34,669 nucleotides of DNA from a virus. The stretch lies in UHGV virus genome UHGV-0090561, one strand, 5' to 3'. Positions 6,612 through 18,890 of the stretch are shown in pieces (position 1 is the first letter of the stretch; each line of letters opens with the position of its first letter). A model generated the notes under the pieces. The model worked only from the letters and a program-made list of their open reading frames with translations, was not told where the DNA came from and ran no database searches. The translations under genes and the position numbers were made by a program.

Positions 6612-7402
6612 TTACGCCAGTTGTACGGACACGAACTCATCAGGGTCAGCCAGCAGCATCAGCGGTGCTGACTGAATCATGGTGAACTCACGCGCAGGAT
6701 CGCCGGTGGTCACCCAGTTTTTCGGGTAACGGGCAGAGGCGTTAATGCCTTCGCGCTGTGCGTCCGCATCCTGAATGCAGCCATAGGTGCGCAGACCGCG
6801 TGCCTGAGTGTTCCCCAGCACCATCGTGTTGTCCGGCAGGAAGTTCTTTTTGACGCCGTTTTCCACGTACTGCCCGGAATACACGACGATGGCCACATCG
6901 CCATACATCCCCTTATAGGACACCGCTTTACCCAGGTCTTTCACCGCTGTCTCCAGCTCGGAATGAGAGCCGCGACGGGTATCCAGCTTCTCCTTGACGG
7001 CTTTGAAGGAACGGAACAGCGCCCAGCCTTTCGGATCAAACACGATGATATTCACTACACCGCTGGCGTTCAGCGCGTAGGCTTCGATATCGTCGGTCGG
7101 GTCATACGTGGACTTGTCACGCTTGCTCCACTCCGTGCCACCGGACTGTGTGATGTTGTTCGCCGCACTGCGGCCCATATCCACCTCAACCGGATCGAAG
7201 GCTTCACCGGTCATGGTGTATTTGCCCTTAAGCACGGCAGAAACTGCCTGCATCTCTTCGACCTGGGCAATGGCCAGCTCTTCGTCACGCATGTTCTGCA
7301 TGATGATGCGACGGCGACGGTAAGCCGGGTCCGCCAGATTCTGTGGATCTTCATCCGGCAGGCGACGCAGGGTCATCTGCGGATTCACCTCATGCTTGGG
7401 CT
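6612..7402 (-). pseudogene. E: Major capsid protein E, 3' fragment (codons from PKHEVNPQ to end), separated from its 5' part by the insertion
   Basis: Translation ...PKHEVNPQMTLRRLPDEDPQNLADPAYRRRR...VSVQLA matches the C-terminal ~260 aa of lambda gpE; no start codon, and a TAG lies immediately upstream at the junction. Confidence 0.93.
7393..7402. repeat. Left copy of 10-bp direct repeat TGCTTGGGCT (putative att core / target duplication)
   Basis: Identical 10-mer at 18591-18600; both copies lie inside E coding sequence (AAG CCC AAG CA on the coding strand). Confidence 0.8.
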
Positions 7403-8440
7403 ACATGAGTCAATGACGTAAGTATGTGAATGATATAAGAGGAAAAATAGAGCATAATCTCTACCAGAATGACTATGTTGCAATACATGCTGCAATACAC
7501 AGAAATGAATTTACATGCTGTTCGATTATTAAGTTTCATAGCCGAGTTGCAGATCAGCAACTCACCCACCAGCCCAGATAATTTCATTTTCACACTGGAG
7601 GACTCCTTGAAATCAAGGAATCATAATCCTGCCATGTCATCATTCCGGCCTTCTCAGATTTGAGGTGTGCGGAAAAAATAAACGCTATTAAGCAGCTATG
7701 TGGGTACTGCACTTTTTGGGTAGTGCAACTATCCAGCTTCCTCAAATTAAGGATTGTGGAAAAATCAATGAGTCAGGTTTATTCCCCCGTTCTCCCCCAA
7801 TGGGGGTTTTCGAAAGAATCAATGGGTTAGGCCATCGTGCAAATTTGCACTCTGCCAGCCAACGCAATTTTGCGTTATCAGTCCTCAGATGTGAGGGATG
7901 TAGCCAGCTTTTCCCCCAGTGGGGATTATCCAGTTACCGACGGTTTAACCGCCTGTGCCAGCACAACGAAAGAATTTGCGGGTAGCTTTAAACTACTCAC
8001 AACATCCCATCTTACAGGCCGTGCCTTTCTAACTTTTTACAATGCAATAAGTCAGGTAACGCTATGCGTTCCACCGTGTACACCGCGCCAGTAAAACCCC
8101 CGGATTCGTGGTTTTCCTGAATATCAGGAATCTACCGCCGTAACCGCTCCTGCTTCTTCCACTGGTAAGTGTTTTTCGCGCTCTCCCTTCGCTACATGGA
8201 ACGGCGACGATATGGCAACAACTCCAGAACTCTGGTGCGTATGTTGCACATATCCACGCCGTTAAGCTCGATACCGTCACGGCGCATAACCTCAAGCACC
8301 ACACGCGCGTAATTTTCAGCGGTCGTGCTGTCCGACTGCGTTGTCTCCTGTTTGCCTGCTGCCTGATAGATATCACTGGAAACGTGCCGGATAAGTTCCA
8401 GCAGCAGAAAGGCGAGTTGCTACCGCGCAATTGTTGAACA

Positions 8441-8647
8441 AAAAACGAGAAAGGAAACGACACTGTCCAAAAAACACGTTTTCAGCACCTGCTGTTTCCT
8501 TTCTTTTTAGGGGGTATTTATAATAAAAACATTAAGTTACGGCAAAGAAGAACGGAAACGCCTTAAACCGGAAAATTTTCATAAATAGCGAAAACCCGCG
8601 CGCCTTCCGCCCCGTAACGCTCCGGATCACCGGAAAGGACCCGCTCA
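8441..8647. other. cos site of the satellite (cosN/cosB-like), near-identical to the prophage cos
   Basis: About 200 bp aligns almost base-for-base with 24798-25000, including the inverted GAAAGGAAACGAC / CGTTTCCTTTC terminase R-site-like repeats and the segment GCGAAAACCCGCGCGCCTTCCGCCCCGTAACG. Confidence 0.75.
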
Positions 8648-8730
8648 AAAAAAGCGGCCACTGACGTGATTGTTTATGTTCCATGAGCGACAAAACCGCC
8701 CGGAGGCGGTTTCACATAAAACATTTTGCA

Positions 8731-9378
8731 TCAGCGACCAATCACCACAACCTGACCACCATCACCTTCATCTGCCGTGCTGATCTCCTGAGATACCACT
8801 CGCGACCCCACACGCATTTCACCGTACAGAACGGGCAGAACATTGCCCTGGGCAACCATGTTATCCAGTGACGAGAAATACGTGTTCTGCTTACCGTTAT
8901 CCGTTGTCTGTGTGCGGGGAGTTCTGGCTTTCGGTGCCAGCATCTGCGCCACACCACCGAGCACCATACTGGCACCCGCACTATACATTCCTGTAATTGC
9001 TGCCGCTCCTAGCCAACCAGCGGGGTTCCACCACGCCACCGCAATCAGCGCCGCCCCCAGCACGGTCTGAAACACACCGCCACTTTTAGCGCCAGCAAGA
9101 CGCGGTACGATGTGGATCACAGCACCATTCGCCAGCGGCTCATTAAGACGGGCTGATAATTCATTTTCGCCTGCATCCCGCCCGGCAATCCGTACCTGAT
9201 ACCAACCGTCGCTCAGTTTCTGACGAAACGACGGTAGCTGTGTGGACAGAGCTCGGATGGCTTCAGCCCCCGTTTTTACACGAAGGTCGATGCGGTGGCC
9301 GAATCGTTGCAAATCCCCGTAAAGGCAGATTCGTGCCATGCCCGATGACGCCAGAGGGAGTGTGTGCGTCGTTGCCAT
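8731..9378 (-). CDS. Tail assembly protein I-like protein (lambda gpI family)
   Basis: 215-aa ORF MATTHTLPLASSGMARICLYGDLQRFG...QGNVLPVLYGEMRVGSRVVSQEISTADEGDGGQVVVIGR resembles lambda gpI as I recall it (N and C termini conserved, middle divergent); Shine-Dalgarno upstream. Confidence 0.65.
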   Translation of the reverse strand: MATTHTLPLASSGMARICLYGDLQRFGHRIDLRVKTGAEAIRALSTQLPSFRQKLSDGWYQVRIAGRDAGENELSARLNEPLANGAVIHIVPRLAGAKSGGVFQTVLGAALIAVAWWNPAGWLGAAAITGMYSAGASMVLGGVAQMLAPKARTPRTQTTDNGKQNTYFSSLDNMVAQGNVLPVLYGEMRVGSRVVSQEISTADEGDGGQVVVIGR

Positions 9379-9418
9379 TTGTCGGTATACCTCTCTCGTT
9401 TGCTCTGTTGTTCAGAAA

Positions 9419-9802
9419 TTAGCAGATCAACTTATAGCGTCCATTCCGAGCATTGCGGCGTACACGTTCAATCTTGAGGCATAGCGCCGCATCTGGCTTT
9501 TTTGGGACTGGTACACGGCAATATTCAGAAGCGCGAGGAATATTATTTATCCAGTCAATCACTTCGCTTAAATACCAGGCCTTACGCCCTTCCGTAACCT
9601 GCACACGCTCCGGGAACTCTCCACGGGCCTCAAGGTTTAGCAGTGTACGACGACTCAGGGTTGTAAGTTCCATTACCTGATTCATATCAACAAGACGCTC
9701 GCTTAAACGCATTTTGTCAGCGATAGCTTTTAATTCCTCTACAGCTGGATTTGGGTACATAATTTCGGCAATTGGCTTAAGGTCATTGTAATGATTCTGC
9801 AT
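9419..9802 (-). CDS. AlpA-like helix-turn-helix protein with N-terminal extension
   Basis: 127-aa ORF with GGGGGA Shine-Dalgarno; C-terminal half TTLSRRTLLNLEARGEFPERVQVTEGRKAWYLSEVIDWI resembles the AlpA/excisionase-type HTH. Confidence 0.6.
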   Translation of the reverse strand: MQNHYNDLKPIAEIMYPNPAVEELKAIADKMRLSERLVDMNQVMELTTLSRRTLLNLEARGEFPERVQVTEGRKAWYLSEVIDWINNIPRASEYCRVPVPKKPDAALCLKIERVRRNARNGRYKLIC

Positions 9803-9813
9803 TGTATCCCCCT

Positions 9814-10155
9814 TTACACACGAGCCAGCGGCTGAACAGAAATACCTGAGCCAACAAACGCTGCAACCTTTACTGACAGTTCTTTTACAGACTCAGGCCA
9901 GTTCAGAGCATCAACATTTAAGACACCTGTCTTATAGACCTGAGCCTGTGTTTTTTTCGCGGTGTCGATTTGTACAGCGGATACATAAACCGCTTTACCT
10001 ACGCTCGTACCATCCCATACCACCAGTGCACCTGTTGCATCTTCCTGCATCAGTGGCGTAAATGCAGGAATTACCCCTTTATTAGCTGAAAATATCCCCA
10101 GCGTAGTAACCAGTGCTTCAGTGCCAGCCATGAGTTCAGTGTAATGAGTAGCCAT
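9814..10155 (-). CDS. Head decoration protein, lambda gpD family (divergent)
   Basis: 113 aa; aligns by eye with lambda gpD (FTPLMQEDATGALVVWDGTSVG vs [22 protein letters not shown]; AFVGSGISV vs [10 protein letters not shown]); strong Shine-Dalgarno AAGGGGGAG. Confidence 0.7.
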   Translation of the reverse strand: MATHYTELMAGTEALVTTLGIFSANKGVIPAFTPLMQEDATGALVVWDGTSVGKAVYVSAVQIDTAKKTQAQVYKTGVLNVDALNWPESVKELSVKVAAFVGSGISVQPLARV

Positions 10156-10164
10156 TGCTCCCCC

Positions 10165-11205
10165 TTAGCCAATGCGAACGGTAACAAAACGATTGATGCG
10201 AGCCGGTATTGGCTGTGGTGCTGAATGTGTCTGCACATATTCAATAGCCGGATCACCAGGCACAATATAGTTTTTCGGTGCAAGTTCGGCTTTAGTCAGC
10301 CCCATTCGGATTAGCTCCGGGTCCTGAATACCGCCATAGGCGACAATCCCCTGAAGAGCCGTATTGCCAAGCACCATCAAATCAGGATCAAGGAAATGTT
10401 TTTCAGTTCCGTCCTCGTCGGTATAACGCCCGCTGTAAACAACAATCGCAACATCGCCCATATACCCTTTAAAACTCACCGAATCACCAAGGTCTTTAAG
10501 GGCCGTTTCCAGTTCGGAATTAGAACCACGACGGGTATCCAGAGCCTCTTTTATCGCTCTGAATGAACGGTATTTCTTCCATACATTACCGCCCATAATG
10601 ATGATATTAGTGACGCCCTCACTAAATTCTGCGTAGTTCTCAATATCATCATTTGGATCAAAAGTTTCTTTATCCTTACCTGACCACTCAGCACCGCCAG
10701 ACTGAGTGATGATATTTTGTGGTTTAATATTCCAGTCCAGCTCATAACGTTCAATACCATCGCCCTCAATGATATTTTTCCCCGTTGTGATTGCCTGAAC
10801 GGCAAGCCATTCAATACGTGCACGAATAGCTTTAGCTTGATTTACAATCGCCTGTTTAACTTTAATATTACGCGCCCCAAAAGCATTGTATTGCTCAGGT
10901 GATACACCAGCAGGGCGCACAGCTAACTTATTTGGATCAATGCTGCTTTTCGGCTTCATATAGCCTGGACGAATTGTTTTTGATTCGTACCCTTCGTCAC
11001 GTGAAACTTTACTACCCACCATAGGAGAACAAAACGCTGCAATTGGGATATTTGGATCGTCGATTGTATCAAGAATAATATCGCGCGATTCAAACATTAC
11101 CGAGCGAGTAAAAAACAAACGGGTAAACAACGCATTTAGTTGTTTTTGTACATCTACAGCATTAACCACCTGTACAAGCTGGGTAGGCGAATATAAATCA
11201 ACCAT
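10165..11205 (-). CDS. Major capsid protein, lambda gpE family (divergent satellite copy)
   Basis: About 346 aa from the ATG with AAGAGG Shine-Dalgarno; central block NIITQSGGAEWSGKDKETFDPNDDIENYA...AIKEALDTRRGSNSELETALKDLG...GDVAIVVYSG is clearly homologous to lambda gpE but far more diverged than the prophage copy. Confidence 0.85.
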   Translation of the reverse strand: MVDLYSPTQLVQVVNAVDVQKQLNALFTRLFFTRSVMFESRDIILDTIDDPNIPIAAFCSPMVGSKVSRDEGYESKTIRPGYMKPKSSIDPNKLAVRPAGVSPEQYNAFGARNIKVKQAIVNQAKAIRARIEWLAVQAITTGKNIIEGDGIERYELDWNIKPQNIITQSGGAEWSGKDKETFDPNDDIENYAEFSEGVTNIIIMGGNVWKKYRSFRAIKEALDTRRGSNSELETALKDLGDSVSFKGYMGDVAIVVYSGRYTDEDGTEKHFLDPDLMVLGNTALQGIVAYGGIQDPELIRMGLTKAELAPKNYIVPGDPAIEYVQTHSAPQPIPARINRFVTVRIG

Positions 11206-11422
11206 ACGCATCCTCTTTGCATTCATTAAAAATAATTGTGGATATATGCTATCACCGATATTTGTCATGCGAATACATGCAACCGAGTGCAATGTTGTAT
11301 AAAGTTTTGGGATGACAACTTCAGCGCGGATAATTAGTGTTAATATCTTCACTCCCTTTGGTCGGGATTTATGTAGCATGCCGGAAAATTTATTTTTTTC
11401 CGGCCTTTTTTATTGGCAATAT

Positions 11423-11872
11423 TTAAAACGGAATATCATCTCCCCATTGCTCATTATCTCCCACTGGTGGATGGCTTCCTTGCTGATCTGCCTGTTGTTT
11501 TGCTCTGTTCAGTGCGTCAGTAGCCTGCCCCTGTTGGCCTTTTTTGCCGCCCGGTCGCACCGTTCGCGCACTGATTACGCTGTCTGCGATAACCTGCCAG
11601 CCCTGCCGCGTTTCACCGTTCTGTCCAGTCCACTGACTCACCTGCATGTTACCCGCCACGCTCAGGAGTTCGCCTTTGTGATGCTTTGCCAGCGCGTCGG
11701 CTTGTCTGCCAAACGCCAGAACAGATAACCACATCGTCGCCTGACCGTCATCCGACTGGCTGCAGGGCAGTGATACCGCCATACGCGCCAGCGTCATGGG
11801 GGTGCCCTTGCTGGTCTGTTTTGTCTGCGGGGCGTCCACCAGCCGCCCGTAAGCTGCTATTTGCGCCGTCAT
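11423..11872 (-). CDS. ssb: Single-stranded DNA-binding protein
   Basis: 149-aa ORF with OB-fold-like N-terminus, Gly/Gln-rich linker and the characteristic acidic tail ending DDIPF. Confidence 0.85.
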   Translation of the reverse strand: MTAQIAAYGRLVDAPQTKQTSKGTPMTLARMAVSLPCSQSDDGQATMWLSVLAFGRQADALAKHHKGELLSVAGNMQVSQWTGQNGETRQGWQVIADSVISARTVRPGGKKGQQGQATDALNRAKQQADQQGSHPPVGDNEQWGDDIPF

Positions 11873-12126
11873 GCTGCCTGCTCTCCGGACTTAATATTGA
11901 TGGTTGTCACTTCCTCCGCTTCGGCAATCTCCCGTTCGGTCAGCGTGGCAAAGTTTGCAGCCGCCGTTGTCATGAATGCGCTTATCAGTTCGGGATGTGC
12001 TTTCGCGTATCCTTCCCCGGCGTTGCGGTCTATTGCCTTAATCGCCACCCTTAGCCAGTGTTCAGCCATATCAAGGGCGCGGTAATGTGGCTTTATATGT
12101 TTGTTCAGTTTTCCTGATGTGTGCAT
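11869..12126 (-). CDS. Hypothetical protein (satellite, between ori and ssb)
   Basis: 85-aa ORF whose stop overlaps the ssb start (operon-like); no recognisable family. Confidence 0.45.
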   Translation of the reverse strand: MHTSGKLNKHIKPHYRALDMAEHWLRVAIKAIDRNAGEGYAKAHPELISAFMTTAAANFATLTEREIAEAEEVTTINIKSGEQAA

Positions 12127-12169
12127 TTTTATTTTTACCCCCTCGTTTAAAAAGTTTTTTGTGCACCAC

Positions 12170-12404
12170 CACCTTGTCTACCTTGTCTACCTGATTAGTT
12201 ATCAGGCCAGTAATGGCGCGGGTTTCAGGGAGGTAGACAGCCCCAAATAGCTGTCTACCTCATCTCTACCCGTATCCTTACCTGTCTACAAAAATGGGTA
12301 GATAAGGTAGATAACAGGTAGACAGTGAAAAATAGTTATCTACCTGCATTAATACATTGAAATAAAAGTATTTTCTTTCAGTCAGGTAGACAAGGTAGAT
12401 AACC
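12170..12404. repeat. Iteron array (putative satellite replication origin)
   Basis: About 10 copies of GGTAGA(C/T)A / its reverse complement TGTCTACC in both orientations, immediately downstream of the primase-helicase gene. Confidence 0.8.
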
Positions 12405-12415
12405 ATTGCCATTTT

Positions 12416-14167
12416 TTATAAAAACGCATCGCAATCATCAGTAGTCGTTGCGTTGGTCTGCGTGACTCCCTTAACTTTTCGCGTAATATATTCATATCCG
12501 TAAACTTTCGCCGCTGACCTCATAGCCTTTCCGAACTCATTCACGCTCAAACATTTCCCCTTTCCTGTGTATGCCATGAAGGCCATATAGACACGGTAAA
12601 GGCTGTTTCTGGTCGTGTACTTCACGGAGTCACCACCACCGCCCATCATTAGCCCACGAGCTTCCTCCAGAAACTCAAGCGCCGCGCAAAGCTCAACAAC
12701 TGGATCCGTTTGCTGCTTTATTGCCAGAGCTTCATCACCGTCACGCTGTTCCAGTAGTAAAGCCCTTGCCTTTTCAGGGTCAGCAAAGTTAGCCAGCAAG
12801 CGGCGGATAATTACGGGGATTTCTGCCGCTATCTTTTCCGGTAATTCCTTGTCTTTTTCGTCCTCCCTTACAATGTTGTCGAACCGGAAAATCACCCGAC
12901 GGCGTGACACACCTCCGGCCCGTTCGGTAAAGATCATCGGGTCGTTATTGGTTGCCAGTACCACCGCCCTTATTATCGTCGTGAATCGCTTCTCATATTT
13001 CGGATTGATTTCAACGGGATCGCCTCCCGTGATTTTCTTGATGCCCGTGCCTTCCCCCGTATATTTCGGCTGATCGGCAAGGACGATAAGACGACTCCCG
13101 ACAACCTGCGCGCGCCCTCCTGCATCATCGAGTGATGTCATCTCTGCGCTTACGGTGTTCTGTTTGCCTGCAAGCAGGGTGGCAATATGGGTAAATGTAC
13201 TCTTACCGCTTCCCCCGTCTCCGGTGGCCTCAATGAACATCTGCCAGTCGTAGCGGTTCGCCATAATCATGTATAACGCGGCACATATACGCATCATCTT
13301 GCGCGGGTCTTTTCCTGCAGCATGTTCAAGCCATTTATGGAAATTTGGCGCATTATCGCGGATGTTTTCCCCTGCTACTGGTGGCGTGTACTCAATACCA
13401 TTGTGCGTGGTGCTCCAGTGCTCCGGCGAGTGCGGAGAAAATTCCCCCGTTTTCAGATTAAGCACACCATTAGTGAACGGTAGCAAATCACCGGACGGCT
13501 CCCCCATGGGGGCTGCAATAACTTTTAACGCTTCCACGGCGTTATTGATTACACGTTTGCTGAACGTGGCCCTGTGCTCTGAATAGATCGCCACCATTTC
13601 GCGGCTCAGCTCCATTGTGCTGACCGGACACCATACCCCGCCGCGCCATACGTGGACGATTTCACTTTCTGCATGAACACACACACCATCAAAGCGATCG
13701 GCAAGTAGTTGTGCACGTTCACTGTCTGCCATCTGTGAAAGTTGCGCCTTTTGCTTCGTCGGAAGATTAAGCACCAGACTTTCCCCACGCTCGCATTCCT
13801 CTTTGAGTCGCGGCAACTGGTCGGATAAATCCACTGGGCTGGTGTCAGTAATCCCCGCGTATTCGTGTACGGTCTTCACTCCAGCCACAGCCAGTAACGT
13901 AACAATCTGCGTCATGCTGTGCTCTGTGATATGTCCTGCGCGGTAAACACGCACACACTGACGATCTTCATCAATGATCCGGTAATCGGTGATATTTTTC
14001 AGTTGCTCATCAGCCAGCACGACAGGCGGCACATCGTCGGCGGCAATATGTTTACCCGCCCATTCCTGCCACTCTTTCGCATGGCTCCACGCATCACTAC
14101 CTGCAAAGATGATTACCTCTGTCAGTCTGTCGCGTGGCTGTTTTTTTAAGTTCGGTGCCAGTTTCAT
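12416..14167 (-). CDS. Primase-helicase (P4-family primase C-terminal / SF3 helicase-like replication initiator)
   Basis: 583-aa ORF with Walker A GDGGSGKST and downstream NTPase-like motifs typical of P4 alpha-type / PICI Pri-Rep proteins; followed by iterons. Confidence 0.8.
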   Translation of the reverse strand: MKLAPNLKKQPRDRLTEVIIFAGSDAWSHAKEWQEWAGKHIAADDVPPVVLADEQLKNITDYRIIDEDRQCVRVYRAGHITEHSMTQIVTLLAVAGVKTVHEYAGITDTSPVDLSDQLPRLKEECERGESLVLNLPTKQKAQLSQMADSERAQLLADRFDGVCVHAESEIVHVWRGGVWCPVSTMELSREMVAIYSEHRATFSKRVINNAVEALKVIAAPMGEPSGDLLPFTNGVLNLKTGEFSPHSPEHWSTTHNGIEYTPPVAGENIRDNAPNFHKWLEHAAGKDPRKMMRICAALYMIMANRYDWQMFIEATGDGGSGKSTFTHIATLLAGKQNTVSAEMTSLDDAGGRAQVVGSRLIVLADQPKYTGEGTGIKKITGGDPVEINPKYEKRFTTIIRAVVLATNNDPMIFTERAGGVSRRRVIFRFDNIVREDEKDKELPEKIAAEIPVIIRRLLANFADPEKARALLLEQRDGDEALAIKQQTDPVVELCAALEFLEEARGLMMGGGGDSVKYTTRNSLYRVYMAFMAYTGKGKCLSVNEFGKAMRSAAKVYGYEYITRKVKGVTQTNATTTDDCDAFL

Positions 14168-14463
14168 TTTTTGCCCCTGAATGCGTTAATCATGCTTTTC
14201 ATTTTCTGGATGTTTCCCCGCGCTTTTTCCCTGCTGGTGGGCTTACTGCGGGGTGCGGCATATACCAGGGAAAAATCACGCCGGAACTGATAAACAGGCA
14301 TCACACAGTCATAGCTATACCCCTCACGGCGGTAAGTGATGCGCCGTTCTGCCACGCCTTTAATCGTTACCGTGCCGCCGTATTTATCGCGGTAAATATC
14401 GCCGTTCATAAATTCAGGCCGAGCGGGGCCGCTGGCAATAAAGCCAGAATTTTTCATTTCCAT
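14164..14463 (-). CDS. Hypothetical protein (upstream of primase, ATGA overlap)
   Basis: 99-aa ORF translationally coupled to the primase start; no recognised family. Confidence 0.5.
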   Translation of the reverse strand: MEMKNSGFIASGPARPEFMNGDIYRDKYGGTVTIKGVAERRITYRREGYSYDCVMPVYQFRRDFSLVYAAPRSKPTSREKARGNIQKMKSMINAFRGKK

Positions 14464-14480
14464 ATTATTTATTCTTCGAC

Positions 14481-14702
14481 TTAACTCGACTTATTTGATA
14501 GCAGGGCACTATTTATTGCGTCATTGAGTTTTTCTGCTGCTTCATCAATAAGTGACAACAGGCCATAAGCAATATTTGCATCTTCATTGTCATTTATGCA
14601 ATCAAGCCACATATTTAATATTGCTTTTGCTGAATTATTTAAAGTTAATGAACTCTCTGCACATGCTAACAATTTAAAAAAGACTTCCCGTTCTGTATTC
14701 AT
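14481..14702 (-). CDS. Hypothetical small protein
   Basis: 73-aa ORF in a tightly packed co-directional array; AT-rich. Confidence 0.4.
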   Translation of the reverse strand: MNTEREVFFKLLACAESSLTLNNSAKAILNMWLDCINDNEDANIAYGLLSLIDEAAEKLNDAINSALLSNKSS

Positions 14703-14894
14703 TTAATCCCCCACCAGCTTACTTTCTTCCTCAATCAGGAAACTAGCGACACTTCCCGAAAGGCGCGCCAGTAGGCTCGCCAGCGCGGATATATCAGCAT
14801 CTGTAATTTTGTTCGGGTATACCTCAAGAAGGCGGCAAATAATTTCTGTTTGGTGCGCACGTTCAGCGGCTTCGTGTAATGTGATTTCCTGCAT
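14703..14894 (-). CDS. Hypothetical small protein
   Basis: 63-aa ORF abutting its neighbours without gaps. Confidence 0.4.
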   Translation of the reverse strand: MQEITLHEAAERAHQTEIICRLLEVYPNKITDADISALASLLARLSGSVASFLIEEESKLVGD

Positions 14895-15079
14895 TAATGC
14901 ACCTCTTTTAATTCATACACTGCTGAAATAATGACTTGTGATAAGCCATATTCTGATGATTCGCTTCTCACCGCAGCAATAGCCGTCTGAACATTAACAG
15001 CCTTCACGTTCTGAGTGATACCAATTGTGTGGCCTCGTGGGTTAACAGCTCGGGCAAATACACGGAAGGTTTTAAGCAC
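14894..15079 (-). CDS. Hypothetical small protein
   Basis: 61-aa ORF overlapping its neighbours by a few nt. Confidence 0.4.
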   Translation of the reverse strand: MLKTFRVFARAVNPRGHTIGITQNVKAVNVQTAIAAVRSESSEYGLSQVIISAVYELKEVH

Positions 15080-15275
15080 GGCACACCTCCTGACGAATAC
15101 GGGCAGCGAATACCATCACGCAGCCAGTTGGGGATTGCTGGCGGGCTTCCTGTTCGCTGATGGCCTCGATGGTAATCATGCGCGGTTGTGCCGTACTCAA
15201 GGCGATAAAACGCCAGATGTATTTATTCAGGTTGTGCGAGTTCCGCCCTTGCGGGTGTGTGGTATGATTTCTCAT
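15072..15275 (-). CDS. Hypothetical small protein (first gene of the leftward satellite operon)
   Basis: About 67 aa from the internal ATG preceded by a GAGG Shine-Dalgarno; the upstream part of the track ORF is not supported. Confidence 0.4.
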   Translation of the reverse strand: MRNHTTHPQGRNSHNLNKYIWRFIALSTAQPRMITIEAISEQEARQQSPTGCVMVFAARIRQEVCRA

Positions 15276-15474
15276 AGCTACCTCGATACTGTTGCTATCG
15301 TTGGTGGTTAGAAGCCCGTTGGTGTTCCTAGCACCTTCGGGCTTTGCTTTTTTAAGTGCCCCCGTGTTAAGGTGGTCACCTAACAATGAAAAGGCTAATT
15401 CAATAGGTGGTCACTTGTCAACGATCAAACGCGATAAAAGTCCTAAGGGTGATGGGCAATCTCCACAATTCAGA

Positions 15475-15606
15475 ATGCGAATTTCTCCAGAGCTAAAAGA
15501 GCAATTCGACAAAGAAGCGCAGAGCGACGGCATAAGCCTAGCCAACTGGCTTAAAGAATTAGGGCGCAAAGAGCTGCTACGGCGCGGTATTGAACCAAAA
15601 GGATAA
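15475..15606 (+). CDS. Ribbon-helix-helix (Arc/CopG-like) DNA-binding protein, putative
   Basis: 43-aa product MRISPELKEQFDKEAQSDGISLANWLKELGRKELLRRGIEPKG fits the RHH pattern; weak Shine-Dalgarno, so the start is uncertain. Confidence 0.45.
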   Translation: MRISPELKEQFDKEAQSDGISLANWLKELGRKELLRRGIEPKG

Positions 15607-15633
15607 GAATAATTGAAGTCAAGGAGCTAACAC

Positions 15634-15990
15634 ATGAAATACGAATTCTTCGCAACAAGTAGCAGTAGTTTGGATGTATACATAGTCACTGTATCAAACG
15701 ATTCTGGCTCGCTAATCATGACTTGTAATTGTCCAGCAGGAAGTAAAGGTATTCTATGTAGACACCGTAAAGCTTTAATTACCGGAAAAATCCGCGGTAT
15801 ATTCACTCCCCCAAGAAGGAATAATCCTGAAAAATTACAAGAAGCTATAAATTTAATAGCCACATATGGCATAGATAAAACATTAAAGTTGTACACTGAT
15901 GAGTTAGAACGAGCAGAACAGACTTGGATAAGTGTTCGCGATAATTTGAGAGCAATGATAAACGCTCTTGTTGAACCACCTAAATATTGA
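15634..15990 (+). CDS. SWIM zinc-finger protein, small
   Basis: 118-aa ORF with AAGGAG Shine-Dalgarno; motif CNCPAGSKGILCRH matches the SWIM CxCxnCxH signature; followed by an intrinsic terminator. Confidence 0.7.
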   Translation: MKYEFFATSSSSLDVYIVTVSNDSGSLIMTCNCPAGSKGILCRHRKALITGKIRGIFTPPRRNNPEKLQEAINLIATYGIDKTLKLYTDELERAEQTWISVRDNLRAMINALVEPPKY

Positions 15991-16056
15991 ACTGTTCACA
16001 TTGCCTATCAGGCGATAACCTCGTATTCTGATTAAGGCTAACTATATACTCACATT

Positions 16057-16080
16057 GGCGACCAATTCTGGTCGCCTTTA
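16057..16080 (+). terminator. Rho-independent terminator after the SWIM gene
   Basis: GGCGACCA-attc-TGGTCGCC hairpin followed by TTTA; position hand-counted. Confidence 0.6.
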
Positions 16081-16121
16081 TCCACCATTTTTATAATATC
16101 ATAGATTAAAAGTGTTAATCC

Positions 16122-16952
16122 TTACCCCCTGAATGGAATTGATGAGGATTTAATTTCCACAGAACTAAATCCTCTTGAATCCAAGAACATTTTTATACCA
16201 GCCTCAATAAAATCATAATCGTTTGTCGGGCCAATTGTAATGCTTTTAATTGGTAACTTTCTATTATCTTTATTATCAATGATGATATAAGGGATGATCC
16301 CATTATTATTTATTCTGAAGTGCACATCTGGCATTTGCATCCACGGAGTAAATACCAATCTAAATTCATTCTCTTCGATAAAACTAGGATGTTTAAAAAA
16401 TGGGATGTATTTAGATATAAATTGATACGTAGAGACCATTGTTACAAAATGATCATTCATTTCTTTAATATTAATACCATTACAAGAAAAAAACTCCCCC
16501 AACTCCTTACTCATCTTAGTAATATCGTTATTATTTGAATATATAACATCATGTGCAACACAATTTAAATAAATATTTTGAGAAAAGCTCACAAGTTCAT
16601 CCGCATCAAACTCAATGCAAACACCCTGTTTATTTCCGTAACCTCTCCACTGACTTAACTTATCGTTTTCCTTACAAAAAGAGATGCTATAAACATGTTT
16701 ATCAATCCCTTTTTCTTTTTGTAACCTCCCTTTCTCATACATGTCAAGAGACTTGAGCAAAATAGTTTTCTTATCTTTTGGAATGATATTATCATCAACT
16801 ATTTTAATTGTATTTCGAAAGCATTCACATCCATGGTTAGACTCCTCTTTATCATTTAAGAAATATATGTTTGTAGCCCATAAAGAATTAGAGTCTAATA
16901 TACCTTTCAAACCAAAAAGATCTGTATAATGAAATATAGCCACAATGCCCAC
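16122..16952 (-). CDS. DUF2971-like protein (satellite cargo, function unknown)
   Basis: 276-aa ORF, markedly AT-rich versus its neighbours; N-terminal FHYTD...YFLNDKEE resembles the DUF2971 motif as I recall it (not verified by HMM); GTG start 7 nt after the alpA stop. Confidence 0.55.
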   Translation of the reverse strand: MGIVAIFHYTDLFGLKGILDSNSLWATNIYFLNDKEESNHGCECFRNTIKIVDDNIIPKDKKTILLKSLDMYEKGRLQKEKGIDKHVYSISFCKENDKLSQWRGYGNKQGVCIEFDADELVSFSQNIYLNCVAHDVIYSNNNDITKMSKELGEFFSCNGINIKEMNDHFVTMVSTYQFISKYIPFFKHPSFIEENEFRLVFTPWMQMPDVHFRINNNGIIPYIIIDNKDNRKLPIKSITIGPTNDYDFIEAGIKMFLDSRGFSSVEIKSSSIPFRG

Positions 16953-16959
16953 CTAATAG

Positions 16960-17190
16960 TTAAGTTGTTTCCCACTCACCTCGAATCCATGCCTGCACTT
17001 CTGAAAGACGATATGCAACAGCAGTGGAACCAATCTTGATCCGCTTAGGAAATTTTCCTTCCTTCTCCAGCTTCCAGCGTGTGCTGTTCGCAAGAGTGGT
17101 TAGCTCCCGACATTCTTTCTCACGGATCATTCGGTCAATGTTAGGAATGTACTCCAGACCCTTTTTATCAACAATTGCCATTTTTTTCAT
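16960..17190 (-). CDS. alpA: AlpA-family transcriptional regulator / excisionase-like protein
   Basis: 76-aa ORF immediately downstream of int; ...RELTTLANSTRWKLEKEGKFPKRIKIGSTAVAYRLSEVQAWI is the AlpA HTH pattern. Confidence 0.8.
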   Translation of the reverse strand: MKKMAIVDKKGLEYIPNIDRMIREKECRELTTLANSTRWKLEKEGKFPKRIKIGSTAVAYRLSEVQAWIRGEWETT

Positions 17191-17191
17191 G

Positions 17192-18427
17192 CTAACCAGC
17201 CTTTTGTTTGAGGATTGTCACTTTTGAATCAGCAGCTGCGATGCTATTGAGATATGTAGTCCAGAGTTCCAGAGCATCCAGTTTTTTAGCCATAAACTTA
17301 CTCCGGTTGTAAACACCTGCCACGCCAGGTAGCGCATGGCCTAACAGTTGTTCTACTACATAAAATTCAACACCGAGATCACTTAGATGAGTAGATAGCG
17401 TTCTTCTAAGGTCGTGTAGTGACCATTGTTTTTCATGGCCCAAACGTTTACCGATTTTCCCCCCAATCTTGCTTACGCTTTCTCTAATTCGCAGACTTCC
17501 CAGCACATAACCAGTATGTTTTGTCTCTTCGTGAACATCCGTTACCCACTGTCGTAGAATTTCAGGTACTGGTCTGACGATTTCAACACCAGTTTTTGAG
17601 TGATCTTTTGGCACAGTCCAAACCCAACTTTCGAGATCCCATTCGCTCCATTCTGATAATCGGGCTTCACTCATTCGACATCCAAATACTGTACAAAGCA
17701 CAAACATTTTTCGCGTGTATTCAGACATTAGTTTTAAATCAGGCTCGACAAAAATTGCCTTCCAGAGCTGGCCCAGTTCGGCTTCATCCAGAACCCGATC
17801 CCGCTTACCTGCAATCTGCCCCACATCACTCATGCGCAAATCCTTTAAAGCATCACACGTCGCGTACTGGCGTACCCGACAAAAACGAAGAGCTAATTTA
17901 GTGTCAGAAAAAACATACGCCGCCATAACTGGTGCATTACGTTTAATTCGGTCAAAACAGTCCAGCCATTCATATAGGTGAGTGTCATTTACGGGCAAAT
18001 GACCGATATAGGGAAAGATATGCTTTCGAAATCTGCCAAGCGTTACAGCATGAGTTTTACGACGCACCTTACAGTAATTTTCATACCAGTAATTTAGTGC
18101 ATCCTCCACTGTGACCGGCTTTAAGCGTTCTTCAGCCTGAATCTTAATCTGGATACGCGGATCACGTTTGTCAGCCAACCAAGCACGGCACTCGTCGCGC
18201 TTTTCCCTTGCCTGTTTGAGTGACATATCAGGATATTTACCCAACGTTAGCCAGACCGGAGCAGCCCGGCCACCTGCTAACCTGTAGAAGAAAACAAAGC
18301 TCACAGCCCCCTTGGTACTCACACGAATAGAAAGCCCCTTTCCATCAGCAATGGTGATCTGCTTTTCTCTGGGTTTCCCCAGATATCCTTTAAGTGCTTT
18401 GTCGCTCAGTTTGTTCTCGCCAGCCAT
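17192..18427 (-). CDS. int: Tyrosine recombinase (phage integrase family)
   Basis: About 411 aa from the internal ATG (MAGENKLSDK...); C-terminal catalytic region with HDLRRT...LLGH...Y-type motifs; adjacent to the right junction and direct repeat. Confidence 0.88.
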   Translation of the reverse strand: MAGENKLSDKALKGYLGKPREKQITIADGKGLSIRVSTKGAVSFVFFYRLAGGRAAPVWLTLGKYPDMSLKQAREKRDECRAWLADKRDPRIQIKIQAEERLKPVTVEDALNYWYENYCKVRRKTHAVTLGRFRKHIFPYIGHLPVNDTHLYEWLDCFDRIKRNAPVMAAYVFSDTKLALRFCRVRQYATCDALKDLRMSDVGQIAGKRDRVLDEAELGQLWKAIFVEPDLKLMSEYTRKMFVLCTVFGCRMSEARLSEWSEWDLESWVWTVPKDHSKTGVEIVRPVPEILRQWVTDVHEETKHTGYVLGSLRIRESVSKIGGKIGKRLGHEKQWSLHDLRRTLSTHLSDLGVEFYVVEQLLGHALPGVAGVYNRSKFMAKKLDALELWTTYLNSIAAADSKVTILKQKAG

Positions 18428-18589
18428 TTTTAGCCCCAAAAAGCAATACAAGCTGCAATACAGAGATGATTGCAACACACAGATAACGAGGAAAATCCAG
18501 TGAAAGCGCCAGATAAACTTATTCTTTATTATCAAAAGATTAAGTGTAAAAACCAGCAACTACACGAAAGCCTCAGAAAGCCATGCTAA

Positions 18590-18835
18590 GTGCTTGGGCT
18601 TGACATATCCCGGTGTAAATTCAGAGGTGGAGCCGCCACGGGAGCGGATAACCTCACCGGAAACAATCGGCGAAACGTACAGCGCCATGTTTACCAGTCC
18701 CGGAATTTGTGAGAGATAGACTTTCTCCGTGGTGAAGGGATAGCTCTCACGGAAAAAGAGACGCAGAAACAGCGGATCAAACTTAAATTTCTTCTCATTT
18801 GCCGCCAGCAGCTGGGCGGTTGTGTACATCGACAT
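18590..18835 (-). pseudogene. E: Major capsid protein E, 5' fragment (first ~81 codons), reading into the insertion
   Basis: MSMYTTAQLLAANEKKFKFDPLFLRLFFRESYPFTTEKVYLSQIPGLVNMALYVSPIVSGEVIRSRGGSTSEFTPGYVKPKH matches the lambda gpE N-terminus, then diverges (LAWLSEAFV, stop) at the junction. Confidence 0.93.
18591..18600. repeat. Right copy of 10-bp direct repeat TGCTTGGGCT
   Basis: Identical to 7393-7402; lies at the codons KPKH of E. Confidence 0.8.
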
Positions 18836-18890
18836 AAAAAAATCCCGTAAAAAAAGCCGCACAGGCGGCCTTTAGTGATGAAGGGTAAGG

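Follow-up and report, generated by a model that had tools for sequence, protein, structure and literature searches.

The locus described here raises the question of what an unusually AT-rich gene is doing directly behind the integrase (int) and alpA genes of a phage satellite, and whether, as a sequence-only reading had proposed, it represents a new single-gene anti-phage system carrying a DUF2971-like domain. The window, meaning the whole 34,669-nucleotide stretch of UHGV virus genome UHGV-0090561 that was analysed, contains both the satellite and the surrounding lambdoid prophage, and the features discussed below are collected in Table 1.

The reading frame and its start

Positions 16122 to 16952 hold an uninterrupted open reading frame (ORF) on the minus strand, with 276 codons when counted from the first GTG. 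When the same 831 bases were shuffled (n = 2000), the longest stop-free run had a mean of 65 codons and a maximum of 149, and a 276-codon frame at 30% GC is thus not a product of chance. The AT-richness that had first drawn attention to the gene is real; its GC content of 0.305 (GC3, 0.285) is the lowest in the element, compared with 0.442 for alpA, 0.454 for int, 0.459 for the whole element, and 0.501 for the window.

The likely start is the second GTG, at 16943, which gives a protein of 273 amino acids. It is the better supported of the two because a Shine-Dalgarno-like hexamer stands 5 nt before it, the PGAP start of WP_016247984.1 (99.6% identical) is the same GTG, and homologues begin M-x-I-x-H-Y-T-D, in agreement with this position. 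The 7-nt distance from the alpA stop that was originally given applies to the first GTG, whereas the preferred start leaves a gap of 16 nt. A literature search by the exact accession WP_016247984 returned no paper mentioning the E. coli protein.

Table 1. Coordinates of the satellite, the DUF2971 gene, its proposed motifs, and adjacent features (positions of the window)
Feature	Position	Strand	Basis or remark
Whole 11.2-kb helper-embedded PICI, 11capE type	7393..18600	-	att block, split capsid gene
Tyrosine integrase, 411 aa	17192..18427	-	Arm-DNA-bind_3 and Phage_integrase; PGAP start, near-identical L001 copy
alpA, 76 aa	16960..17190	-	Pfam Phage_AlpA, 56.3 bits; directly upstream of DUF2971 gene
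Swappable single-gene cassette (variable slot)	16080..16971		blastn against sister elements
AGGTGG, Shine-Dalgarno-like	16949..16954	-	5-nt spacer before GTG 16943; direct sequence reading
DUF2971 / predicted ART-fold CDS, 273 aa	16122..16943	-	first-GTG form extends to 16952 (276 aa)
H5-Y6-T7 (CAT TAT ACA), proposed ART motif I, strand beta-1	16923..16931	-	invariant in 61 homologues
S97-Q98-W99-R100-G101-Y102, proposed ART motif II (conserved Tyr)	16638..16655	-	conservation in homologues
E191-N-E193-F-R195 (GAG AAT GAA TTT AGA), proposed ExE catalytic motif III	16359..16373	-	E191, E193, and R195 invariant
GC-rich hairpin GGCGACCA-ATTC-TGGTCGCC	16058..16077		between convergent DUF2971 and SWIM genes; terminator-like
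SWIM zinc-finger gene	15634..15990	+	Pfam SWIM, 24.1 bits; phrog_13130 strong; PDC-S62 weak

A helper-embedded satellite

The satellite is bounded by a 10-bp att identity block, TGCTTGGGCT, at 7393-7402 and 18591-18600, and it splits the lambda-E-like major capsid gene of its helper, on the minus strand, so that the N-terminal part of the gene lies at 18560..18862 and the C-terminal part at 6612..7388. In the surrounding lambdoid prophage, terminase, portal, protease, and D genes stand upstream of the element, and the tail genes follow downstream. Within the element are int, alpA, an Icd-like gene, DUF4222, a D5-type primase, SSB, an E-like capsid gene of its own (10165-11379), and a D-like decoration gene (9814-10155), with Pfam support for the core (integrase, AlpA, D5_N/DUF5906 primase, SSB, Phage_cap_E, and HDPD). 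The element is the published HE-PICI 11capE (PMC10111431), with which it also shares a 10-bp att block lying in gene E. The integrase reading frame is open to 18559, int and alpA are separated by 1 nt, and the gene under study follows them directly on the same strand, as had been claimed for it.

Several other features of the element were recorded. The captured capsid and decoration genes are followed downstream by a second AlpA-family gene (127 aa; 9419-9802, minus strand), and the element therefore has two AlpA paralogues. A doubled motif, GCAATACA (GCAATACAtGCTGCAATACA), occurs inside both element ends at 7480-7503 and 18443-18466, 10,963 bp apart, and may be the HE-PICI-unique 'doubled DNA motif' of PMC10111431, presumably integrase arm sites. 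The satellite probably has its replication origin at 12231-12403, where iteron-like direct repeats (AGGTAGACAG...CTGTCTACCT and GGTAGATAAGGTAGATAAC, at a spacing of about 85-88 bp) lie a short way downstream of the primase gene. The 3' end of the element (7435-9425) is variable as well. The element of locus L001 is otherwise 98.8% identical, yet similarity to it breaks off at 9426 and is regained only at 7434. This segment contains a lambda tail-I-like gene at 8731-9378, which matches LeoBC weakly, and two ORFs without matches (8062-8463 and 7698-7985), and looks like a second accessory region. In the early operon, a 73-aa ORF (14481-14702, minus strand) with no family match is as AT-rich as the DUF2971 gene (GC, 0.33) and may likewise have been acquired recently.

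A swap slot after alpA

Among 5,426 complete E. coli genomes, the int-alpA segment was found in about 176 at ≥95% identity and in 179 when any match was counted, compared with only 36 genomes possessing the DUF2971 gene. Six sister loci (L002-L007) were inspected, and because a truncated major capsid gene directly precedes int in 6/6, these elements occupy the same capsid-gene site. The gene after alpA varies amongst them. The alternatives include a CAP12/Pycsar-type TIR protein (PADLOC PDC-S35 match, E 7e-67; 37 genomes), a putAbiC protein in reverse orientation, and three proteins for which no Pfam or PADLOC match was found, namely an uncharacterised protein of 305 aa (L002:7615-8532; 6 genomes), a 265-aa protein with two transmembrane (TM) helices (phrog_2611; L004:7585-8382), and an uncharacterised protein of 467 aa (L005:7608-9011).

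By blastn, similarity ends at 16972, in the last alpA codons, in all of the sister elements, and in L004, which has other cargo and the same SWIM gene, it resumes at 16079; these breakpoints delimit the DUF2971 gene as a single-gene cassette of ~0.9 kb. The gene is cargo, not backbone, as had been proposed from its position, and the slot directly 3' of alpA exchanges defence-type genes. The post-alpA position in 11capE-type satellites is accordingly defined here as a single-gene swap slot, and its 305-aa, 265-aa, and 467-aa occupants are cheap candidates for new defence genes.

In Enterobacter kobei (L010:7207-8822), two genes stand in tandem after alpA, first one for a protein 56% identical to the two-TM cargo of L004 and then a DUF2971 gene (43% identity), suggesting that cassettes can stack. 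The alternative is that the two genes are able to cooperate in some elements. About 2 kb downstream of this tandem is an Abi_C gene.

Protein family and predicted fold

A profile search upheld the family assignment, with a match to Pfam DUF2971 (PF11185) of 46.2 bits against a gathering cut-off of 22, covering residues 98-196, and the cut-off was also passed by 61/61 aligned homologues (29-60% identity). The N-terminal motifs that the sequence-only reading had named as typical of the family are invariant in these 61 homologues but fall outside the Pfam model. The full set of invariant residues consists of H5-Y6-T7, N30-D31-x-x-E34, L96, W99, and Y102 (in S-Q-W-R-G-Y), Y135, K184, F188, E191-x-E193-x-R195, P218, and G238-P239, while S97, Q98, R100, and G101 are conserved in at least 90% of the homologues. 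The family is large, with the profile matching 29,969 clusters at 50% identity (8,438 with E ≤ 1e-30), and the best 150 representatives listed are nearly all single-domain proteins of 260-350 aa.

A PDB sequence search with the 61-sequence profile found nothing beyond brief chance alignments with loops of GABA-A receptors, and the fold was therefore examined through a model. The AlphaFold2 model based on the 61-homologue alignment (pLDDT, 88.4; pTM, 0.85) is confident and has the split beta-sheet core of an ADP-ribosyltransferase (ART), a fold that binds NAD+. Around this core are a C-terminal beta subdomain and two long helical inserts (residues ~32-83 and ~141-182). The top seven Foldseek matches were to the DarT and Tpt1 families, each of them weak (E 0.01-0.07), and a fold search of BFVD returned only uncharacterised viral proteins (TM about 0.3-0.4).

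The motifs of the H-Y-E clade of ARTs, motif I (H-x-S/T), motif II (Tyr), and motif III (Glu at a strand start), are present in order and invariant. H5-Y6-T7 lies within a predicted strand (residues 2-8), the segment with Y102 is proposed as motif II based on the motif order and PMC12522546, and in the model a beta-strand begins at residue 193, placing E193 at its start. At the sequence level, residues 4-22 of the protein weakly match Tox-ART-HYD1, as do 21 of the 61 homologues, and a single homologue touches AbiGi. The model shows a predicted ART core of the H-Y-E type, nearest to the nucleic-acid-modifying DarT and Tpt1, in which the active-site signature H-Y-T / Tyr / ExE is predicted to be intact. 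DUF2971 was placed in the H-Y-E clade near DarT, AbiGi, and Tox-ART-HYD1 in 2025 (PMC12522546), an assignment that the model independently reproduces; the same study calls the motif-I histidine poorly conserved, in contrast to its invariance among the 61 homologues.

A predicted ART fold could also belong to a protein that is inactive or has no relation to phages, whether a decaying passenger, a secreted virulence effector, or a Tpt1-type housekeeping enzyme. An effector role has been proposed for some Legionella DUF2971 proteins and about 18% of DUF2971 proteins are predicted effectors (PMC12522546), Tpt1 is among the fold neighbours, and one homologue is an orphan between metabolic operons. 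However, the reading frame is unbroken, with at least 99% conservation across 24 genomes, the catalytic-motif residues are all invariant, and the protein, in whose sequence no signal peptide or transmembrane segment was found, reads as cytoplasmic. The patchy occurrence of the gene and its carriage by mobile genetic elements argue against a housekeeping enzyme, and we regard this group of explanations as extremely improbable.

Transcription and neighbouring genes

Co-transcription of int, alpA, and the DUF2971 gene is plausible based on their spacing. A sigma-70 scan returned 10 sites, compared with 8.0 ± 2.9 expected, and none in the junction between alpA and the ORF; a promoter of the gene's own was considered and rejected, the minus-strand sites within the gene being noise from its AT-rich sequence. 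Downstream, the hairpin between the convergent genes marks the 3' boundary of the cassette and is stable on both strands (z -2.8 and -4.7). A U-tract follows it on the plus strand only, and as a result it is uncertain if the minus-strand transcript of int, alpA, and cargo terminates there.

This arrangement could instead serve the life cycle of the satellite, with the ART made only when the int-alpA operon fires, through helper induction or late-operon read-through, and acting in helper interference or host takeover by modifying helper or host nucleic acid or proteins and biasing resources to the satellite. Consistent with such a role, the layout is tight (int, 1 nt, alpA, 16 nt, ORF), with a Shine-Dalgarno sequence and no intervening terminator or convincing promoter, and the int-alpA-DUF2971 order is kept in diverged satellites. 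The element is also co-oriented with the late genes of the helper, and late transcription should therefore read into it (PMC10111431). Further, no antitoxin is present, and transcriptional gating would be a simple means of controlling a toxic enzyme. Nevertheless, the gene appears dispensable for the satellite cycle because only 36/179 backbone elements carry it, the TIR and putAbiC alternatives in the slot are typical of defence, homologues occur outside satellites (on plasmids and beside CBASS, restriction-modification (R-M), and Abi genes), and the validated DUF2971 protein Aristaios acts on infecting phages from a plasmid (PMC11381338). A role in the satellite's own cycle seems unlikely on this evidence.

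On the far side of the hairpin, the SWIM gene, convergent with the DUF2971 gene and likewise AT-rich (36% GC), is present in only some sister elements (L001 and L004), and others carry a YlcI/YnfO gene there. The SWIM gene could thus form another cassette in its own right, with an accessory or regulatory role. Its presence, along with that of a nearby HicB-like fragment (15292..15606, below the Pfam cut-off), bears on whether the DUF2971 protein is the toxin of a toxin-antitoxin (TA) or addiction module that stabilises the satellite, with an antitoxin gone unrecognised as a small ORF, an antisense RNA, or one of these two genes. DarT, to which the protein is nearest in structure, is a TA toxin, and a distant plasmid homologue is annotated as a 'putative T/A toxin'. 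As partner or antitoxin, the SWIM gene was rejected on three counts: L004 has it beside different cargo, the cassette breakpoint separates it from the DUF2971 gene, and it is missing beside the Klebsiella and Enterobacter copies. Neither a macrodomain nor any other conserved neighbour accompanies the homologues, and a Rfam scan of the whole window, run for immunity RNAs, found no RNA family. An addiction module is very unlikely.

Homologues in other genomes

In Klebsiella aerogenes, a 59%-identical copy of the DUF2971 gene again follows int and alpA, in a satellite embedded after a terminase gene. This satellite (L008/L009; CP142846.1, CP142848.1) also carries a Zn-ribbon/Toprim primase and a ClpP-capsid fusion gene, and has been deposited twice, once integrated and once as a 10,541-bp circular 'plasmid', the latter probably being the excised, replicating form caught by assembly.

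More distant homologues are solitary genes and no conserved partner was seen in the neighbourhoods inspected. Their settings differ, with the P. putida homologue adjoining a CBASS operon in an integrase-bounded island, the Deinococcus homologue adjoining an MmeI-type R-M gene, and the Symbiopectobacterium homologue located among TA modules, Tn3, and umuDC. In the Streptococcus satellite Javan305, the homologue sits at the element end. Many homologues are on conjugative plasmids, for which a leading-region or anti-defence role was considered; the IncI context inspected proved to be an Abi/DUF3800 neighbourhood instead, in that the IncI-gamma/K1 plasmid NZ_CP122641.1 (L019, 7208-9857) has a 39%-identical DUF2971 gene beside an 'abortive infection family protein' and DUF3800. 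PGAP calls this plasmid gene at 582 nt against a tblastn match of 786 nt, and it may be mis-started or disrupted.

Proposed function

Taken as a whole, the model in which the DUF2971 protein is an ART-fold abortive-infection effector, carried as a post-alpA single-gene cassette of the 11capE HE-PICI, is one that we consider slightly more probable than not to hold. By analogy with Aristaios, an anti-phage abortive-infection effector is the most likely function, and anti-phage activity is the best reading because the gene is cargo (36 versus 179 genomes) and the slot elsewhere holds TIR or putAbiC proteins.

Under this defence model, expression would be driven via the int-alpA transcript, as the spacing suggests, and the protein would remain silent or autoinhibited for as long as no phage cue is present. 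The trigger sensor may reside in the helical inserts (about 32-83 and 141-182), the C-terminal beta subdomain, or both. Once triggered, the protein, which we infer from the model to be an active NAD+-dependent transferase, would use NAD+ to ADP-ribosylate an essential target, with the outcome that phage gene expression would be shut down and the infection aborted. Based on the structural neighbours and on the block that Aristaios imposes on phage transcription or protein production, the target is probably nucleic acid.

A bolder proposal holds that the enterobacterial clade consists of antitoxin-less, DarT-like nucleic-acid ARTs whose toxicity is controlled by position in the AlpA operon and, in addition, that the three other slot occupants (305-aa, 265-aa two-TM, and 467-aa) are new defence genes. 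The enzyme would then be made only after a helper, or an invader resembling one, has activated the satellite, and would ADP-ribosylate phage or host DNA or RNA, arresting the competitor. If true, this would add positional control to the ways in which ART toxins are kept in check, a new logic, possibly with a new nucleic-acid target. We consider this combined proposal quite unlikely.

Comparison with known systems

To our knowledge, Aristaios is the only validated member of the DUF2971 family. It is a 316-aa DUF2971 protein from the Lactococcus plasmid pUCCL641_199, validated in 2024 as a single-gene abortive-infection system and with a predicted ART-like fold (Grafakou et al., PMC11381338), and it blocks phage transcription or protein production, not DNA replication (PMC13064643, PMC12967558). 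Compared by description, the two proteins share the DUF2971 domain, a single gene without a partner, a similar size (316 versus 273 aa), a predicted ART-like fold, and carriage by a mobile element. They differ in the phylum of the host and in the carrier, a plasmid as opposed to a phage satellite, and the abortive-infection phenotype has been demonstrated for Aristaios alone. A tblastn search of PLSDB with the E. coli ORF had no Lactococcus record among the matches listed, and the same was true among the matches listed for a tblastn search of the plasmid collection from the Javan305 homologue.

For the predicted ART core, the best structural match is DarT of DarTG (PDB 7omv, 7yk3, 8baq), which has the order of its H-x-T motif and catalytic Glu, a cytoplasmic location, and an association with phage defence in common with the E. 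coli protein. By sequence the two part ways, in that no DarT (DUF4433) Pfam match at E ≤ 1 was found in the 61 homologues and PADLOC gave no DarT match. The DarG macrodomain antitoxin is also absent, the neighbours here being alpA and the SWIM gene, and none was found in the homologue neighbourhoods examined.

PADLOC's PDC-S31 is a computational candidate that, like the E. coli gene, consists of a single gene. Its five HMMs are matched weakly by 46/61 homologues (best E 1e-9), which identifies PDC-S31 as a related DUF2971-type lineage; the E. coli protein itself matches with only 19.9 bits (E 1.3e-4) over 77 residues of a 259-position model, which would place it outside that lineage.

The carrier corresponds to the HE-PICI 11capE in the site in capsid gene E, the 10-bp att block, the order of int-alpA, dynamic zone, primase, and captured capsid gene, and the int-proximal position of the cargo (Mageeney et al. 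2023, PMC10111431). In the main-text passages considered, the zone after alpA is described as containing Bro-N proteins and immunity RNAs, and neither a single-gene defence swap slot nor DUF2971, TIR, or putAbiC cargo is described for it. More generally, it is established that immune systems can be located at the 5' or 3' end of a PICI (PMC11364771).

Two claims of the sequence-only reading have thus been overtaken by published work. The family does have a validated function, with Aristaios in 2024 (PMC11381338) and the ART assignment in 2025 (PMC12522546), and the gene is not the first candidate of its kind, as Aristaios precedes it, PADLOC already lists PDC-S31, and both the HE-PICI 11capE (PMC10111431) and immune cargo at PICI 5' ends (PMC11364771) had been published. 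With both the protein family and the satellite slot type already described, the E. coli gene is an enterobacterial, satellite-borne candidate of a kind already known, and current understanding is not overturned. Relative to these known systems, the E. coli copy is tractable and would be convenient for finding out what DUF2971 enzymes act on (DNA, RNA, or protein) and which phage cue sets them off, because of its clean predicted active site, its defined cassette boundaries, and the lambdoid helper prophage that adjoins it.
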